A stretch of DNA of 17,234 nt from a virus (taxonomy: Duplodnaviria > Heunggongvirae > Uroviricota > Caudoviricetes), in the IMG/VR virus record IMGVR_UViG_2778261690_000005, positions 1-17,234 of that record; one strand, given 5' to 3'. The translations under genes and the position numbers were made by a program. Of the stretch, positions 2,953-11,983 are shown in pieces. Each line of letters begins with the position of its first letter. Positions within the stretch are counted from its first letter, which is position 1. The notes beneath the pieces were generated by a model. That model was not told the DNA's origin. It did no database searches and saw only the letters and a program-made list of their open reading frames with translations.

Positions 2953-3028
2953 TGGTGCTGGTTAACGGACTTGAACCGCTACCCATTCGCTTACAAGGCG
3001 ACTGCTCTACCATTGGAGCTAAACCAGC
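2953..3028 (-). tRNA. tRNA-Thr (anticodon UGU)
   Basis: Hand-folded 76-nt cloverleaf on the minus strand: 7-bp acceptor stem GCTGGTT/AACCAGC, D-stem GCTC/GAGC, anticodon loop CTTGTAA (U33, anticodon TGT, A37), T-arm AGCGG-TTCAAGT-CCGTT, discriminator A, encoded CCA. Confidence 0.7.
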
Positions 3029-3033
3029 ATGTT

Positions 3034-3108
3034 TGGCGGGACAGCGTGGGCTCGAACCACGATAAGAAGGTTAACAGCCTTCCGTAATGACCTTTATACG
3101 ACTGACCC
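3034..3108 (-). tRNA. tRNA-Asn (anticodon GUU), somewhat divergent
   Basis: Hand-folded 75-nt cloverleaf: perfect anticodon stem GAAGG/CCTTC with loop CTGTTAA, T-arm CGTGG-TTCGAGC-CCACG, encoded CCA. The acceptor stem GGGTCAG/CTGTCCC has one T-T mismatch and the D-stem is weak. Confidence 0.6.
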
Positions 3109-6140: not shown

Positions 6141-7576
6141 CAGAATCCTCCTTTCTTCTTGGACTGCGGTTCCTCGCGTTCACGTCGGCGCATTTCAGCA
6201 GACTGTTGGTCTGTGTCATAAATAGCGCCATTTGCCTGAATGCAATACACCGTGCCGGTATTGCCATGACGATTGAGACGAAGGATTAGTTCAGTTTCAC
6301 CAGGTGGAACACTGTCATCAAAAGCGCCTTCACGATGGATCCCGACCCAATAATCGCAATCCTGTTCAATCTGCCCTGTATCTCGTGAGTCACTTGGTAA
6401 TGGGCGTTTATTGGTTCTGCTTTCCAGTGCGCGGTTAAGCTGCGTCAGAAGCACAACAACGCAATCAAGCTCTTTGGCAAGGTTCTTCAGTCCTTTGGTG
6501 ATCATGCCGTAAGCAAGGTCGTTGCGATCGGCCTTCTCAGCGGTCATTAGTGTCAGGTAATCGACCAGAATCATGCCAACACATCCTTTTTCTCGCTTGA
6601 TTCGACGGCTTTCGCTGACGATTTGAGCCAGAGATAATCCCGGCGTGTCGTCGATGTAAAGCAGGTCTATTTCACTCAAGCGATTGGCTGTTTCTATCGC
6701 CCTGTTGAAGTCACCATCGTAATCACCCTGATAGCCGTCATCGGCGTCATTTGTCGCCGGAAGGTAAAAAATATTCGGGTTAACACCAGACTTCTGCCCT
6801 ACCAGTTTTTCCAGTATCTGATCACCTGGCATTTCAAGGCTGAACATCAATGCGGGCTTTTTCTCATGCACTGCGCAATTGATTGCCATCTGGCTGTATA
6901 GCGTCGTTTTCCCCATCTTAGGGCGAGCGCCAATGACAAACAGAGAGCCTTTCACCAGACCTTTCGGTGACAGCATCCTGTCCAACGATGGGATCCCTGT
7001 GCTCATTCCCCGTTGTTCTCCTGATGGGTCAAATCTCTTCTCAAGGTCGCTAACCCAGTCTTCCATGACCTCACCAAATGAACGAAGGCCGCGACGCGAT
7101 CCGGTTTTTGCATGGTCTGTCAGTTGCGTGAAAATCGACTGAATAGCTTCGTACTTCTGCGTCGCAGTCATTCCGTTGCGGGAATAGAGCAATTCCGTCG
7201 CTTCAGTCATGCGGTTGATGGCGTAGCGTTCCATTGCGGTTTCACGAACCTGCATTGCATAGGCAACGATGTTTGCTGCGCTTGGCGTGTTCTTTGCGAT
7301 CTCAGCGATATAAGCAAAACCGCCAACAGACACCGTTAACGATTTACGCTCCAGTTCATCGAAAAGCGTCAGGCCATCTACTGGCTTTTGCTCCCAGTGC
7401 ATTCTGGTTATTTCTTCGAAAAGGATTTTGTGTGGTCGGCTGTAAAATGAATCGGGCTTCAGCATCGCCAGAACTTTCTGGACGCGCTCACTGCTGTCAT
7501 CATCCAGAAGCAATCCACCAATCACCGCCTGCTCTGCCTCGATGCTATGGGGCGGCGCATAAAAATTATCGGTCAT
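6140..7576 (-). CDS. Replicative DNA helicase, DnaB family (phage-encoded, P22 gene 12-like)
   Basis: DnaB N-terminal motif (SIEAEQAVIGGLLLD), Walker A GARPKMGKT, RecA-like C-terminal domain. ATG at 7576 is preceded by GAGGGTG; the six-frame start at 7591 is GTG. Confidence 0.9.
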   Translation of the reverse strand: MTDNFYAPPHSIEAEQAVIGGLLLDDDSSERVQKVLAMLKPDSFYSRPHKILFEEITRMHWEQKPVDGLTLFDELERKSLTVSVGGFAYIAEIAKNTPSAANIVAYAMQVRETAMERYAINRMTEATELLYSRNGMTATQKYEAIQSIFTQLTDHAKTGSRRGLRSFGEVMEDWVSDLEKRFDPSGEQRGMSTGIPSLDRMLSPKGLVKGSLFVIGARPKMGKTTLYSQMAINCAVHEKKPALMFSLEMPGDQILEKLVGQKSGVNPNIFYLPATNDADDGYQGDYDGDFNRAIETANRLSEIDLLYIDDTPGLSLAQIVSESRRIKREKGCVGMILVDYLTLMTAEKADRNDLAYGMITKGLKNLAKELDCVVVLLTQLNRALESRTNKRPLPSDSRDTGQIEQDCDYWVGIHREGAFDDSVPPGETELILRLNRHGNTGTVYCIQANGAIYDTDQQSAEMRRREREEPQSKKKGGF

Positions 7577-8456
7577 CGTGTTCACCCTCACGAACTTTCA
7601 GGTAGGTATTGTCGTTAAGCAGGAAATCAAATCCCTTTTTGTGCCAGACGGTTCCGCGTTGATGGTTTGGGCGTTCTTCGAACATCCATCGGCAATTTTC
7701 GCCTACGTAGCTCAAATAATTTCTCCAGTCCTGCATCGTGAACCCATGCCCGTCAAGCTGGCGGGTTATCACTCCGGCTTTGCGCCAGAACGTTCGGATC
7801 TGGTTTTTACGCTTGTCATTCAGTGCGCGGATTCTTGGCGCTTCAGGAAGGATTTCGTGGTAAGCATCGACAACATCCTGACAGCTAACGGAAGGTTTTT
7901 TCTTGTCAGACTTTTTGTCTGCTGTGGCACTCTCTAATACGTCAGTATTAGAGATATTATTTATATTATTGTTTATGGACAACCGTTGGACAACCGTTGG
8001 ACAATCTCCGCTGAGAGCCGCGCCATTACTGGTGTTTGCGTTGGACAACCGTTGGACAACCGTTGGACAATTTTTTGCCTGAAAATCGTCATATTTAACG
8101 ATTGTAAACAGGCTAAATTTCTTCCCCATCGAGCAAATATTAAGCATCCCTTTCGACTCAAAAGTCCGTAATAAGCTCCGAACTTTGTTGTCGGGGATGA
8201 ATGTTTCTCTGACCAGCGACGGGCGTCCAGTTATCATCTGACCGCGATCAACAGTTATCGGACCGATATCCGTATTGACGACAGTAGATTCGTGATTAGC
8301 CTTGAGGATTAAGTGAAGCCAAAGATGTACTGCCTGAGAGTCCTTATAGAGCCTGCTGTCCATAAACTGGCGGTGTATAGAGACATACCCCATACTGGAT
8401 GCCTCCTGATGTTGTACAGGGTTATGCCTGTAATCAGCTAACTTAACGACGCCCAT
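7566..8456 (-). CDS. Replication initiator, lambda O / P22 gp18-like, with ori iterons inside the gene
   Basis: 296-aa ORF immediately upstream of the helicase, in the cII-proximal position of lambda O. The central part encodes the repeated peptide CPTVVQRLS twice, mirroring the DNA iterons, and an Asn/Ile-rich linker follows the AT-rich DNA segment. Confidence 0.8.
   Translation of the reverse strand: MGVVKLADYRHNPVQHQEASSMGYVSIHRQFMDSRLYKDSQAVHLWLHLILKANHESTVVNTDIGPITVDRGQMITGRPSLVRETFIPDNKVRSLLRTFESKGMLNICSMGKKFSLFTIVKYDDFQAKNCPTVVQRLSNANTSNGAALSGDCPTVVQRLSINNNINNISNTDVLESATADKKSDKKKPSVSCQDVVDAYHEILPEAPRIRALNDKRKNQIRTFWRKAGVITRQLDGHGFTMQDWRNYLSYVGENCRWMFEERPNHQRGTVWHKKGFDFLLNDNTYLKVREGEHDDR
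7946..8075. repeat. Candidate origin of replication: two clusters of three 11-bp iterons (GGACAACCGTT) plus a flanking AT-rich segment
   Basis: GGACAA cores at 7977, 7988, 7999 and at 8043, 8054, 8065 with exact 11-bp periodicity, about 34 bp between clusters, and an AT-rich stretch at 7946-7976. Architecture resembles lambda ori inside O. Confidence 0.7.
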
Positions 8457-8613: not shown

Positions 8614-8681
8614 TGTGGATTGATCCAGTCTTTCTACATCAGGCCTCGAAGAATTCGCCGTTCTTCGGGGCTTTTTCTTTT
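8614..8681 (+). ncRNA. OOP-like antisense RNA candidate (antisense to the cII 3' end)
   Basis: Plus-strand extended -10 (TG-t-CATAAT, 8599-8607) followed about 70 nt later by a strong terminator. Position and orientation match lambda OOP RNA as recalled. The promoter call is sequence-only. Confidence 0.5.
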
Positions 8682-8917
8682 GTCAGCATTCTGGCTACTT
8701 TCTTAGCCAGTTCCGCCAACTCCTCGTCTTCAACACCCCATTCAAGAACAGCCAGAAGCATTCCCATTTTGGGGATGAAGCTATCTTTCCATCGCGAAAT
8801 TTGCGATTCATTAATCCCTAACGCGTCGGCAACCTTTCGCTGACCACGTACAGCAATTCGATTCAGGATGTTGCTTGTAATTGCATTCGCTTTCTTGCGA
8901 GTACTTGTAAGTTGCAT
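8639..8917 (-). CDS. cII: CII transcriptional activator
   Basis: 92 aa from the ATG at 8917. Motif QISRWK...IPK...MLLAVLEWGV matches lambda CII as recalled. The six-frame ORF start at 9004 would overlap nutR. Confidence 0.85.
   Translation of the reverse strand: MQLTSTRKKANAITSNILNRIAVRGQRKVADALGINESQISRWKDSFIPKMGMLLAVLEWGVEDEELAELAKKVARMLTKEKAPKNGEFFEA
8643..8681 (+). terminator. Intrinsic terminator on the plus strand inside the cII 3' end (tO-like)
   Basis: 11-bp stem (GCCTCGAAGAA 8643-8653 with TTCTTCGGGGC 8661-8671, one G-U pair, 7-nt loop) followed by TTTTTCTTTT. No T-run in the opposite orientation. Confidence 0.7.
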
Positions 8918-8975
8918 ATGTAAGTATTTCCTTAACAAATAAGAAGTTATGCGCATCAAATTATGCGCGTTGTAT

Positions 8976-9018
8976 TCCCGCATTTCGGCGGGAATGAGGA
9001 CCATGACTGTTAAAGAGC
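8976..9018 (-). promoter_or_regulatory. nutR: boxA (GCTCTTTAAC) plus boxB hairpin (TCCCGCCGAAATGCGGGA)
   Basis: Located 8 nt downstream of the cro stop on the minus strand. Same boxA and boxB sequences recur at nutL (10650-10690). A palindromic hairpin at 8951-8968 (GCGCAT-CAAATT-ATGCGC) follows, as a possible tR1-like element. Confidence 0.7.
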
Positions 9019-9025
9019 GGTGTTA

Positions 9026-9220
9026 CTATTTGTTTTTCTTGTTGCTTGGGAAAGGACGAACTTCCTCTCCAATCACACTGCCATCAGGCTTTACCGTAAC
9101 CATGATGTTACGGCCTGCCAGAATGGCCTTGCTGATAGCGCACTGGATTACACCAAAGTCACTGGCTGCTTTAGCCTGTCCATGGATTTTGGCGTAATCG
9201 GCAAGTGTCATTCGAATCAT
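9026..9220 (-). CDS. cro: Cro repressor
   Basis: Lambda Cro-like (ITLKDYA versus MTLADYA; C-terminal [11 protein letters not shown]). ATG at 9220 is preceded by GGAGAG with a 5-nt spacer; the six-frame start at 9226 is GTG. Confidence 0.85.
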
Positions 9221-9249
9221 ATGCACTCTCCGTTATTAACCATGAACAA

Positions 9250-9320
9250 AGAATACTACAGGTATTCAAAGCAATCAATACTCAGGGTATTTTTAGTTTA
9301 AGTACCTTAGCTATTAGAAT
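9250..9320. promoter_or_regulatory. OR operator region with divergent pR and pRM candidates
   Basis: Three 15-bp dyad sites: AATACTACAGGTATT (9252-9266), AATACTCAGGGTATT (9278-9292), degenerate AGTACCTTAGCTATT (9301-9315). pR candidate on minus strand: -35 TTGATT (9273-9278), 17-bp spacer, -10 TATTCT (9250-9255). pRM candidate on plus strand: -10 TAGAAT (9315-9320), placing the start at the cI AUG (leaderless, as in lambda). Confidence 0.55.
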
Positions 9321-9326
9321 TAAGCT

Positions 9327-10043
9327 ATGGAAAATAAAAAATCACTGACGACAGAACAGCTAGAAGACGCTAAGCGGCTTAAGGCTTTGTATGAGTCAAA
9401 AAAGAAAGAATTGGGAATAACCCAATACTCAATCGCTGATGAACTGGGTATCACCCAAGGAGCGGTAGGGCATTATCTTAATGGCAGAAACGCGCTAAAC
9501 GTTGAGGTTGCATCTGGTTTTGCACGACTGTTGCAAGTCTCAATTGCTGATTTTAGCCAGTCAATTGCTGCCAAGGTTGCAGAACAGGCAGAAAGCCTTA
9601 AGAGCGATGCCAACGTAAGGTATGCAGGAGAATACAGAGCAGGAAAGAGGTATCCGGTGTTAAGCAGTATCCAGGCTGGCTCGTGGTGTGAAGCATGCGA
9701 ACCATACACCATTAAAGACATAGATGTTTGGCTTGAGTCTGACGCGCATATTCAAGGTAATGCGTTCTGGCTTAAAGTGGAAGGTGATTCAATGACGGCA
9801 CCGGTTGGGTTAAGCATTCCAGAGGGAACATTCGTTCTTTTCGATACCGGAAGGGAGGCGATCAACGGCAGCTTGGTCATAGCAAAACTTTCTGACTCTA
9901 ACGAAGCAACATTCAAGAAGCTGATAATCGACGGCGGAAATAAATACCTCAAGGGACTTAATCCTGCATGGCCTCTCGTGCCAATCAATGGAAACTGCAA
10001 GATTATAGGCGTTGCAATTGAGACAAAACTCAGACTGGTTTGA
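9327..10043 (+). CDS. cI: CI repressor (HTH N-domain plus S24 LexA-like autocleavage domain)
   Basis: 238 aa. N-terminus LTTEQLEDAKRLKALYESKKKELGITQ matches lambda CI ([27 protein letters not shown]) as recalled; Ala-Gly cleavage-site candidate; C-terminal GDSM...FKKLI...LNP motif. Confidence 0.9.
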   Translation: MENKKSLTTEQLEDAKRLKALYESKKKELGITQYSIADELGITQGAVGHYLNGRNALNVEVASGFARLLQVSIADFSQSIAAKVAEQAESLKSDANVRYAGEYRAGKRYPVLSSIQAGSWCEACEPYTIKDIDVWLESDAHIQGNAFWLKVEGDSMTAPVGLSIPEGTFVLFDTGREAINGSLVIAKLSDSNEATFKKLIIDGGNKYLKGLNPAWPLVPINGNCKIIGVAIETKLRLV

Positions 10044-10061
10044 TCACGCAAGGGGGCGCTT

Positions 10062-10430
10062 ATGGTTGGAACCGCTATAGCAAGCTTTTTGGGGATGTTG
10101 GCAATCTCAACAATTTACGGCTTAGCGCATGCTTTTATTGCGAAATCTCTATCAGAAAAAATAAGCCAGGCTTGGGCGCATAGATCAGCTCGTTTCATGA
10201 TTCTGGTGATCATAGCAATACAAGGGATATCTGCATTTATCATCTATGGATCAAGCTTATACCTATTGTATCAAGGCGCGACATTTACGCCTTACACCAG
10301 TGATTACGGAACTCTATACGATGGTAGTGAAGACATCTCTATGGCTTGGATCGTCTTTGGTTTATCTATGGCCGTGTCTGTTGTAGCAGACATCATTAAG
10401 GTAATTCTCGTCTTAACCTTCGCTGACTAA
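10062..10430 (+). CDS. Small integral membrane protein (122 aa, about 3 TM helices) at the rex position downstream of cI
   Basis: ATG preceded by AAGGGGG with a 5-nt spacer, 19 nt after the cI stop. Three hydrophobic helices (residues about 4-26, 45-69, 95-120). No resemblance to lambda RexA or RexB as recalled. Confidence 0.6.
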   Translation: MVGTAIASFLGMLAISTIYGLAHAFIAKSLSEKISQAWAHRSARFMILVIIAIQGISAFIIYGSSLYLLYQGATFTPYTSDYGTLYDGSEDISMAWIVFGLSMAVSVVADIIKVILVLTFAD

Positions 10431-10516
10431 CCCATAATCCCGGCAGCAATAGCTATCGGGATCAACTTCACATATCCCGCATAAAAAGCACTGAACAAGC
10501 AGACGACGAAAAAATA

Positions 10517-10603
10517 AATATCCTTTGTATTCATTTGCTTATCATTATTTCACCAAAAATAAATACCTTGGGTATTTACACAATAAAATACCTACAGTAT
10601 TCT
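10517..10603 (+). promoter_or_regulatory. OL operator region with pL candidate
   Basis: Three dyad sites of the same family as OR: AATATCCTTTGTATT (10517-10531), AATACCTTGGGTATT (10562-10576), AATACCTACAGTATT (10587-10601). pL candidate: -35 TTTACA (10575-10580), 17-bp spacer, -10 TATTCT (10598-10603), the same -10 hexamer as the pR candidate. Confidence 0.55.
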
Positions 10604-10649
10604 TTAGCCATCAGCAGGACGCTGGTAGCCAAACGGAACAGATTGGCAG

Positions 10650-10690
10650 GCTCTTTAACATTGATGGGATTGTCCCGCCGAAATGCGGGA
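10650..10690 (+). promoter_or_regulatory. nutL: boxA (GCTCTTTAAC) plus boxB hairpin (TCCCGCCGAAATGCGGGA)
   Basis: Exact copy of the nutR boxA and boxB on the opposite strand, downstream of pL and upstream of N. boxA resembles the rrn-type boxA (GCTCTTTAACAA). Confidence 0.7.
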
Positions 10691-11048
10691 ACTGAGTTTA
10701 ACCAAACAGGAGGTGCCGTAATGGTGCACTAACGCGGTTAGACCGCAGCCGAAAGGCAATGCAGCAGTAATGATGCTGCCCCGAGTCGCGTAATGGCGAG
10801 CAGGTTTAGCAGACCGATGTGAGGGTAAATAAGGGAACATGCTCCGGAAAGGCAGCGCGAATGCCAGACGCGCACCGGTTATCAGCGGCTAATAAGCGAC
10901 AGAGACTCAAGGGCATGAGCGCGCTCACTGCGAGAGTGTGAGTCAAAGAGTAGTTGGCTTTGGGGTGACGTGAAGTGCAGCTGCACGACGGCAACCGGAA
11001 GATAAGCACCCGGCGCGTCACCGCCAAAGTCAATCATCGGAGGTCAAC

Positions 11049-11348
11049 ATGACAGTAGTCATTACATATCTGGCTGACGATAACGCCAGAAATCGCCGCA
11101 GAGCACGCAGACAGGCTCAACGTGAACAGGCAATGCAAGAACAGCGATTGGCGCGAAAGATTGCGCTAAAGCTCTCTGGTTGCGTCAGAGCAGATAAAGC
11201 AGCATCACTCGGAAGCCTTCGCTGCAAGAAGGCAGAAGAAGTCGAGCGTAAACAGAACCGTATTTACTACCGCAAGCCACGCAGTGAAATGGGTGTGACT
11301 TGTGTTGGTCGCCAGAAAATGAAATTAGGCAGCAAACCACTTATTTGA
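11049..11348 (+). CDS. N: N antiterminator
   Basis: 99 aa with an N-terminal Arg-rich motif (DDNARNRRRARRQAQREQ) and a C-terminus resembling lambda N (YYRKPRSEMGVTCVGRQKMKLGSKPLI versus WYSKPGERGITCSGRQKIKGKSIPLI, from memory). RBS GGAGG with a 5-nt spacer; nutL and nutR are present. Confidence 0.85.
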   Translation: MTVVITYLADDNARNRRRARRQAQREQAMQEQRLARKIALKLSGCVRADKAASLGSLRCKKAEEVERKQNRIYYRKPRSEMGVTCVGRQKMKLGSKPLI

Positions 11349-11359
11349 GAGGAATTAAT

Positions 11360-11983
11360 ATGTCATCAATCCGCTTAACTACGAGAATGAAAGAGGAAAT
11401 CGCTCGTAACGCTTTAATTAAGTCTGGGGTTTTCACTGAACTTGAAGAAGTAACAAAGTTAAAGAACCAGCTTGCACTTGACGCCAGAGTTATTGCGTTT
11501 GGCGGGAAAAAGAAAACCGAAGAAGTGGACCAGCTGGCATCAAAGTTAATGGCTGCAAGTGAGGAACTTCAAAAGCTTGGATGTTCATTTTACTCACGCG
11601 ATGTCAGTTCAAGTTCGATTTATCTGACTGTATCTGGAAGAAGGGTTGGCTGGCATTCATACGGAAAAGACGGCAACGGTGAAGATATATTTCTCCCTAC
11701 CCCCAACAAAGATAAATGCATGTTTGACGCAGAACACAAAATAACAAAAAGGTTTGATGAAATCTGCGAATTGCAACAAAAACTTGAAGCCAGGAAAAAG
11801 GATATCGAATCAAATGTATGGGCTGCTTTGAACTCAGTCACAACAGTTAAGCGACTTATTGAGGTCTGGCCTGAAAGCAAAGAGTTGCTACCAAAAGAAG
11901 CAGATAAAGCAAGTGCAGCACTTCCTGCTTTACGGGTAGAAGATTTGAATAAGATGATTGGACTTCCTTCCGAGGCCGCATAG
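11360..11983 (+). CDS. Hypothetical protein (207 aa), first gene after N; function unknown
   Basis: ATG at 11360 preceded by GAGAGGAA, 12 nt after the N stop; stop codon embedded in a terminator hairpin. Predicted soluble, charged, partly coiled-coil. The six-frame start at 11300 overlaps N and is a likely over-extension. Confidence 0.65.
   Translation: MSSIRLTTRMKEEIARNALIKSGVFTELEEVTKLKNQLALDARVIAFGGKKKTEEVDQLASKLMAASEELQKLGCSFYSRDVSSSSIYLTVSGRRVGWHSYGKDGNGEDIFLPTPNKDKCMFDAEHKITKRFDEICELQQKLEARKKDIESNVWAALNSVTTVKRLIEVWPESKELLPKEADKASAALPALRVEDLNKMIGLPSEAA

Follow-up and report, generated by a model that had tools for sequence, protein, structure and literature searches.

In lambdoid prophages the interval between the repressor gene cI and the antiterminator gene N is a mosaic hotspot of accessory and defence genes expressed in the lysogen, including rexAB of lambda, stk of 933W, hex of 434 and bstA of BTP1 (PMC8585504, PMC3564112). 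BstA and Stk are abortive-infection proteins that are encoded immediately downstream of the prophage repressor and are made in lysogens (PMC8585504, PMC3564112). Genes in this slot do not always serve defence, however, as the Hex protein of phage 434 protects the repressor from RecA-mediated cleavage (PMC3564112). The original prediction placed in this slot a membrane protein that it called unrecognised, and proposed for it a role as a lysogen-expressed exclusion or abortive-infection factor different from Rex; the gene concerned, its neighbourhood and the explanations for its presence are considered here.

Layout of the immunity region and identity of hkaS

The stretch of DNA analysed (17,234 nucleotides; hereafter the window) contains a lambdoid immunity region, oriented here with cI on the plus strand (Table 1). 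The window cI is 99.6–100% identical to the cI proteins of HK620, mEpX2, HK140 and HK630, and megablast of positions 9300–11100 returned the immunity regions of HK620, HK140, mEpX2, HK630, HF4s, two Stx2c-converting phages and others at 97.5–99% identity; the immunity module aside, the closest overall relative of the window is Shigella phage Sf6. The HK620 record gives the order cI, hkaS and then features annotated as tIMM, OL3, OL2, pL, OL1 and nutL. On mapping these to the window, OL2 and OL1 match exactly and OL3 with one mismatch, and pL is found as TTTACA-17-TATTCT at 10575–10603, the sole promoter-like site on the plus strand of 9000–11400. The OR block is the divergent pR/pRM control region and the boundary of the immunity region toward cro, and the cI-to-N slot is bounded at its other end by N, which heads the pL operon. 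The mapped operators thus bear out the position first proposed for hkaS, ahead of OL/pL and inside the OR...OL block, where lambda has rexA-rexB.

Table 1. Features of the immunity region in window coordinates.
Feature	Position	Strand	Remarks
O-like replication gene	7566..8456	-	
cII-like gene	8639..9004	-	
cro	9026..9226	-	
Right operators	9251..9316		OR1 9251-9267, OR2 9276-9292, OR3 9300-9316; HK620's annotated operators found unchanged
cI repressor	9327..10043	+	238 aa; HTH_3 and Peptidase_S24 (Pfam); first gene of the lysogenic transcript
Shine-Dalgarno sequence of hkaS	10050..10056	+	AAGGGGG, 5 nt before the ATG, within the cI-hkaS spacer
hkaS	10062..10430	+	122 aa, ATG start; predicted three-pass inner-membrane protein, PHROG 6534
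TM1 (aa 4-27)	10071..10142	+	hydropathy; AlphaFold2 helix 2-29; N-terminus predicted periplasmic (positive-inside rule)
Basic loop (aa 28-44)	10143..10193	+	K28, K33, R41, R44; predicted cytoplasmic; AlphaFold2 short helix aa 31-38
TM2 (aa 45-69)	10194..10268	+	invariant Q54 and S65
Acidic Tyr/Gly-rich loop (aa 70-92)	10269..10337	+	predicted periplasmic; predicted beta-hairpin
TM3 (aa 93-120)	10338..10421	+	invariant S106, D110 and K113 on one helical face
Stable hairpin	10437..10462	+	-13.7 kcal/mol (RNAfold), no U tract; 7 nt after the hkaS stop
tIMM, cI-transcript terminator per HK620 annotation (offset +6300)	10512..10542	+	putative; weak AT-rich hairpin, -1.7 kcal/mol
Left operators with pL	10539..10610	+	OL3 10539-10555, OL2 10561-10577, OL1 10586-10602; HK620 annotation mapped
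nutL	10649..10690	+	mapped from HK620 annotation
Antiterminator N	11049..11348	+	PHROG 271, E = 4.8e-37; weak Pfam N_peptide match

Beyond this region, a gene for a 227-aa Nmad5 (nucleotide modification associated domain 5) protein (11300–11983, plus strand; Pfam E = 7.7e-70) directly follows N, overlapping its 3' end when called from the first TTG, a position occupied by hkaQ in HK620. Two tRNA genes (2956–3108, minus strand; Rfam tRNA, 61.5 and 53 bits) lie downstream of a Q-like region, a layout typical of Stx-like and Sf6-like late leaders.

The open reading frame behind cI is hkaS of coliphage HK620 (AF335538; AAK28867.1), entered in 2001 with the product "unknown"; the window and HK620 proteins are 95.9% identical, and the window protein belongs to PHROG 6534 ("unknown function"), which it matches over residues 1–122 of 122 with E = 3.4e-78. 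All public sources label the product "hypothetical protein", and a literature search found no paper on the gene. The description "unrecognised" therefore holds for the function but not for the reading frame, which already bears a name in the HK620 record. hkaS is a genuine gene, a well-defined conserved hypothetical protein rather than a discovery; having been catalogued as a reading frame since 2001, it would, if its function were established, constitute a new protein family within the known logic of repressor-linked accessory genes. The spacer between the cI stop and the hkaS ATG is 18 nt (10044–10061) and not 19 nt as first given, and the strong ribosome-binding site expected there is present; loci of Salmonella, Hafnia and a metagenome have the similar sequences AAGGA or CAGGGA at the equivalent position. 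Neither a promoter-like nor a terminator-like site was found at the cI-hkaS junction.

Two hairpins follow hkaS, of which the nearer (10437–10462) could be the 3' end or a stabiliser of the cI-hkaS transcript; its place is taken in the Salmonella loci by an inverted repeat of another sequence (CCATTAG...CTAATGG; read from the alignment, not folded). Since tIMM folds weakly and the nearer hairpin is stable, the true 3' end of this transcript is uncertain. A very hydrophobic 35-aa reading frame on the minus strand (MNTKDIYFFVVCLFSAFYAGYVKLIPIAIAAGIMG, 10427..10534), convergent with hkaS and overlapping its stop codon, was considered as a partner of hkaS or a type I toxin; it is not conserved and is probably not a gene, as the Salmonella loci have unrelated sequence in its place and a 1-nt insertion breaks its frame in an Stx2c phage. 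It is presumably this frame that appears as the second hypothetical protein under the match in the HK140 and mEpX2 (JQ182726) records.

In the pL leader, between nutL and N, the window carries a discrete block of about 235–253 nt (10692–10944, plus strand; core about 10709–10943) that is absent from HK620. The block is carried, unannotated, by mEp213 (99%), Stx2c phages (89%), Hafnia phage yong1 (83%, where it follows rexB), E. coli phages vB_EcoS-733R5 and vB_EcoS-716R3 (78%), a Providencia phage (83%) and Klebsiella phages RothC and RothD (80%, after antiterminator Q and before tRNA genes). A 27-nt pattern taken from it was found in at least 120 IMG/VR contigs, giving 90 unique sequences and 66 representatives below 93% identity. 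The element starts with a conserved GGAGG, a start codon, 0–3 codons and a stop (in the window GGAGG at 10709–10713 and the mini-ORF ATG GTG CAC TAA at 10721–10732), followed by several hairpins that show strong covariation. RNAalifold on 67 sequences gave a structure of 35 pairs, in which 98.2% of cells form a standard pair (93.0% after shuffling; 23–38% when partners are slid), 17 pairs are changed on both sides (7.7 ± 1.9 after shuffling, with 0 of 500 reaching 17; 5–11 with slid partners) and the covariation score is 0.211 (0.112 and 0.014–0.042, respectively). Frequent alternation of G-U and G-C points to an RNA made from the plus strand. Rfam 15 gave no match at gathering thresholds (best E = 2.5 in a permissive scan), and a literature search by the element's sequence found nothing relevant. 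The flanks of the IMG/VR loci, read by eye, hold Q, N, cI, HkaS, endolysin and spanin genes upstream and N, holins and assorted cargo downstream, which would place the element within operons controlled by antitermination, either in a leader or at an intergenic junction. It is a candidate for an undescribed structured RNA module of lambdoid phages, unrelated to hkaS.

Predicted structure of HkaS and searches for relatives

The three hydrophobic helices originally predicted for the 122-aa protein are recovered both by hydropathy and by structure prediction. Kyte-Doolittle analysis finds three hydrophobic segments above 1.6 (aa 4–27, 45–69 and 93–120), and AlphaFold2, using a six-sequence alignment, predicts three long membrane helices with a mean pLDDT of 88 and a pTM of 0.74 (helices at aa 2–29, 31–38, 41–74 and 89–121, with a small beta-hairpin in the 75–88 loop). 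As the loop at 28–44 is basic and that at 70–92 is acidic (D81, D87, E90, D91), the positive-inside rule predicts an N-out, C-in topology. Conservation is concentrated in the cytoplasmic loop, which carries KISQAWAHRxARF, in the periplasmic loop with its motif YLLYQGATFxPYxSxYGxxYxG, and in TM3 and the C-terminus with an invariant ILVLT-A motif, whereas the lipid-facing parts of TM1 and TM2 vary. A reading of TM1 as a cleavable signal peptide (AHA-F) was rejected: the segment lacks a basic n-region, homologues do not keep the motif, and the positive-inside rule would put the site in the cytoplasm.

Searches with HkaS against Pfam, NCBIfam, PADLOC and PDB sequences, together with the exhaustive profile search and fold searches, gave nothing informative. 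No family of the PADLOC-DB v2 defence-protein models was matched at E <= 1, and at the same limit Pfam gave no RexB, Imm, SieB or holin match; the sub-threshold Pfam matches Cation_ATPase_C (E = 5e-4, 20.3 bits against a cut-off of 27.3) and TssN were taken as hydrophobic-helix composition. Pairwise hhalign probabilities are 0.3% with lambda RexB, 0.25% with P22 SieA and 0.05% with 434 Hex, and a search for a rexA-type partner found no other conserved reading frame between cI and OL. The protein is thus unlike RexA and RexB, as had been supposed.

The predicted fold invites comparison with membrane pores. Class I holins have three transmembrane segments in an N-out/C-in arrangement, like that predicted for HkaS. 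An HkaS oligomer might accordingly act as a channel of the RexB or holin type, depolarising the membrane when an infecting phage disturbs it, the cell dying before progeny are made, and the invariant polar residues Q54, S65, S106, D110 and K113 inside TM2 and TM3 (those of TM3 on one face, by helical-wheel reasoning) are consistent with such a channel, as is occupation of rexB's slot. The BstA study likewise describes abortive-infection systems as sharing a position next to cI (PMC8585504). However, no RexA-like sensor or partner is encoded, neither RexB similarity nor a Pfam holin match is present, the loops are too short for sensing cytoplasmic events, and none of the tight control that a constitutive pore would need is visible; we consider a pore of this kind quite improbable.

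E1-type colicin immunity proteins are also three-TM proteins, and resemble HkaS in size and layout. hkaS might on this analogy be a host-fitness gene, a lysogenic-conversion membrane protein acting in immunity against pore-forming bacteriocins, in envelope-stress or acid tolerance or in transporter modulation. In keeping with this, selection on hkaS is purifying and not diversifying (see below), the gene is present in gut Enterobacterales from many hosts, and the record of phage Huey lists a PagP-like gene with the repressor under the cI match, a co-listing and not a mapped position. Searches of Pfam and NCBIfam, however, gave no immunity match of the colicin or any other type and no transporter or stress-family match, the ORF list has no bacteriocin genes nearby (the neighbours being cI and OL/pL), and a benefit to the host gives no reason for the strict coupling to one repressor lineage described next. 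This explanation is unlikely, although less so than the other rivals of the exclusion reading.

Linkage to the cI repressor and selection on hkaS

Among 5,426 complete E. coli genomes, the window-type cI is found in 146 and hkaS also in 146, each at 147 places, all of them chromosomal, and the coordinates of the two genes adjoin in the E. coli records present in both listings. All 16 phage records that have the window-type cI at 99% identity or more carry hkaS, and among the E. coli genomes and phage records searched hkaS was never found away from the HK620-type cI lineage. In the five lineages examined (Escherichia, Hafnia, Salmonella, Enterobacter-type and Buttiauxella), as well as in a short metagenome contig, hkaS follows cI by 18–23 nt; in the window, in HK620 and in the Salmonella, Hafnia, Enterobacter-type and Buttiauxella loci, the cI that precedes the PHROG 6534 protein has an HK620-type C-terminal domain.

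By sequence comparison, cI and hkaS co-diverge. Relative to the window, identities for cI and HkaS are 99.6% and 95.9% in HK620, 95.8% and 81% in Hafnia, and 86% and 60% in Salmonella; between Salmonella and the Enterobacter-type locus they are 98% and 67%. The last pair (L003 and L144) was considered as a swap of hkaS alleles behind one cI, and this was rejected since the cI genes have a dS of about 1.06, which points to old co-divergence with an extremely constrained cI. In Buttiauxella (L145 1333–2369, compared with window 9327–10430) cI is chimeric: the N-terminal DNA-binding domain is unrelated and cro is different, identity reaches about 90% in the C-terminal S24 domain, and HkaS follows 20 nt on at 54% identity, with a domain-boundary recombination junction lying inside cI. 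The conserved unit would therefore be the C-terminal half of cI together with hkaS. The carriers are of different kinds and include the P22-like HK620 (Lederbergvirus), Stx-converting phages, and HK140, mEpX2 and HK630, which we take to have lambda-like long tails. The cI-hkaS pair thus appears to move as an immunity module whatever the virion type, and this fits a function that is not tied to the carrier's own virion.

As a separate observation, the non-coding OL/pL/nutL block (10520–10660) is about 95% identical between E. coli and Salmonella (L003/L005), and cI and hkaS beside it show saturated synonymous divergence (pS about 0.8) between the same hosts. Recombination may therefore have recently set a boundary immediately behind hkaS, or else the control region may be very strongly constrained.

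The survey of the slot in related phages that was proposed with the original prediction found varied occupants. Among more distant cI relatives, the slot is empty in Serratia phage OS31 and holds soluble proteins of 201 aa in Erwinia phage 49 and 98 aa in Fostie and Hex in phage 434 (cI 52% identical); CharmingMan, another of these relatives, with a cI C-terminal domain 77% identical, has no hkaS behind it.

Such strict linkage raises the question of whether HkaS acts on lysogeny itself, tuning the cleavage or stability of the repressor or the activity of FtsH/HflKC on CII-type regulators, in a manner comparable to 434 Hex. The failure to find hkaS apart from its cI lineage, the retention in Buttiauxella of the cI cleavage/dimerisation domain along with hkaS, and the conserved motif of the cytoplasmic loop are consistent with this, and in the equivalent slot Hex guards its repressor from RecA-mediated autocleavage (PMC3564112). 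Adjacency alone, however, explains co-inheritance with the 3' half of cI, and CharmingMan does without hkaS despite its similar C-terminal domain. Moreover, HkaS has no similarity to Hex and is nearly all membrane-buried, with a 17-residue cytoplasmic loop, which makes it an unlikely ligand of RecA or cI. A modulator of lysogeny or induction is thus distinctly unlikely.

No relatives of HkaS beyond its own family were detected. A word-indexed search of 5.8 billion proteins gave 11 clusters with identities of 54–98%, nearly all of 122 aa. An exhaustive profile search over the 1.84 billion 50%-representatives recovered a single full-length cluster, along with a truncated copy and a spurious match to a repeat protein. 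This last, a protein of 5,949 aa (P0014, E = 2.9e-7), was set aside as chance and not homology: a 27-residue motif resembling the periplasmic loop occurs in it nine times without change, and these copies, at about 7 bits apiece, make up the score. Among 185,579 species-representative genomes, one, a Buttiauxella, has hkaS. Six sequences at 54–98% identity to the window protein share 57 invariant positions and a fixed length of 122 aa. Intact clusters have sizes of 525, 53 and 45, against 1–2 for the few frameshifted or truncated forms (P0005, P0008, P0009, P0013).

Selection was quantified by the Nei-Gojobori method for E. coli and Hafnia. For cI, dS is 0.74, dN 0.024 and dN/dS 0.03; for hkaS the values are 0.66, 0.10 and 0.15. 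The equal dS of the two genes points to a shared history. Overall, dN/dS is about 0.15–0.2 for hkaS and 0.01–0.03 for cI; in deeper comparisons both genes have reached synonymous saturation, with pN of 0.27 for hkaS and 0.08 for cI. On these estimates purifying selection acts clearly on hkaS, at about one-fifth of its strength on cI, with no sign of an arms race. Homologues that keep the frame at 54–98% identity, with dN/dS of about 0.15 where dS is unsaturated, indicate that the reading frame is more than chance. This bears on whether hkaS might be a functionless hitch-hiker kept merely by its position between cI and OL, as the few broken variants and the lack of a known function could suggest: constraint of this order at near-saturated synonymous divergence, the fixed length, the invariant positions and the great excess of intact over broken copies largely refute such an origin, which is hardly credible.

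Proposed function of HkaS and comparison with known systems

The best explanation of these data, held tentatively and at somewhat less than an even chance, is that HkaS, an inner-membrane protein transcribed along with the repressor, serves to exclude other phages, as its genomic context would suggest. By analogy with lambda, and from the HK620 annotation, hkaS would be made together with cI from the lysogenic transcript, initiated at pRM in lysogens and at pRE during establishment, and would be off during lytic growth. HkaS would span the inner membrane, exposing a short conserved loop to either side, and act in superinfection exclusion at the cytoplasmic membrane, where delivery of heterologous phage genomes may be hindered by the conserved Tyr/Gly-rich loop on the periplasmic side and by the polar residues along one face of TM3. 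Its target might be the ejection or tape-measure proteins of the incoming phage, or an inner-membrane host factor that such a phage needs, and its manner of exclusion could be like that of P22 SieA, T4 Imm and HK97 gp15. Co-transcription, topology and anti-phage role alike we infer.

Several observations argue for exclusion. The 18-nt spacer with its strong Shine-Dalgarno sequence, the position within OR...OL and the placement of tIMM after hkaS by HK620's authors are consistent with expression alongside the repressor; the obligatory linkage to cI, the purifying selection and the invariant motifs in both loops and TM3 point the same way, as does the confident three-helix membrane model (pLDDT 88), with which hydropathy agrees. 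Precedents are provided in the slot itself by rexAB, stk and bstA (PMC8585504, PMC3564112) and elsewhere by SieA (PMC10883804). Single small inner-membrane proteins are, in addition, the usual form of such systems, and since HkaS is single, small and without a cytoplasmic domain such as could sense replication, a block at entry fits better than an intracellular sensor. The hairpin predicted to face the periplasm, aromatic and acidic in character, is moreover conserved. Carriage by phages of different kinds also suits an exclusion role. On the other hand, there is no match to PADLOC models, to SieA or to the Pfam Imm, SieB or RexB families, evolution is purifying with none of the marks of an arms race, and Hex of 434 shows that the slot can hold a non-defence protein. 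The strict tie to one repressor lineage, with no shuffling among immunities, would be unusual for a free-standing defence gene, and the cytoplasmic loop, which is not obviously needed for an entry block, is as conserved as the periplasmic one. Of the exclusion or abortive-infection role first proposed, what stands is that it is plausible from position, in a slot that is a hotspot for such genes; no PADLOC defence model lends it a match, and a defence reading of hkaS is a reading of its position and not a finding.

More doubtful is the broader proposal that HkaS founds a new family of prophage immunity proteins, minimal in size (122 aa, three TM helices) and working alone, which act from within the inner membrane to block or abort heterologous phage infection, the gene being welded to the C-terminal half of the repressor so that immunity and exclusion move as one. 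hkaS occurs in about 2.7% of complete E. coli genomes, Shiga-toxin phages included, and also in Salmonella, Enterobacter, Hafnia and Buttiauxella prophages, and the cI-to-N slot of lambdoid prophages has been a repeated source of phage-defence systems (Rex, Stk, BstA). If HkaS excludes phages, it would represent a new minimal membrane-level mechanism with a bearing on phage-therapy host range and on the ecology of Stx phages; a role in tuning induction would instead have consequences for the release of Stx.

HkaS shares its genomic position with RexB, Hex, Stk and BstA and belongs to none of these families. Lambda RexB is likewise a small polytopic inner-membrane protein encoded on the cI strand in the slot between cI and OL/pL, with pRM/pRE co-transcription with cI presumed for hkaS as well; unlike HkaS, for which three TM helices are predicted in 122 aa and no partner is encoded, RexB has four TM helices in 144 aa and acts with RexA. 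The hex gene of 434 also lies directly after a related cI (52% identity) and on the same transcript (PMC3564112), but its product has a hydrophobic N-terminal leader and is otherwise hydrophilic, in contrast to the three TM helices of HkaS. To BstA and Stk the likeness is that of a gene immediately downstream of a prophage repressor. P22 SieA, a protein of 162–164 aa with three predicted TM helices, is alone sufficient to block DNA delivery (PMC10883804). Its gene differs from hkaS in lying in immI beside the ejection-protein gene 16 under its own promoter, whereas hkaS follows the repressor; the two proteins are nevertheless alike as single small prophage inner-membrane proteins with three predicted TM helices (for HkaS by hydropathy and AlphaFold2), and SieA is proposed, by analogy, as the best functional counterpart for the mechanism suggested here.
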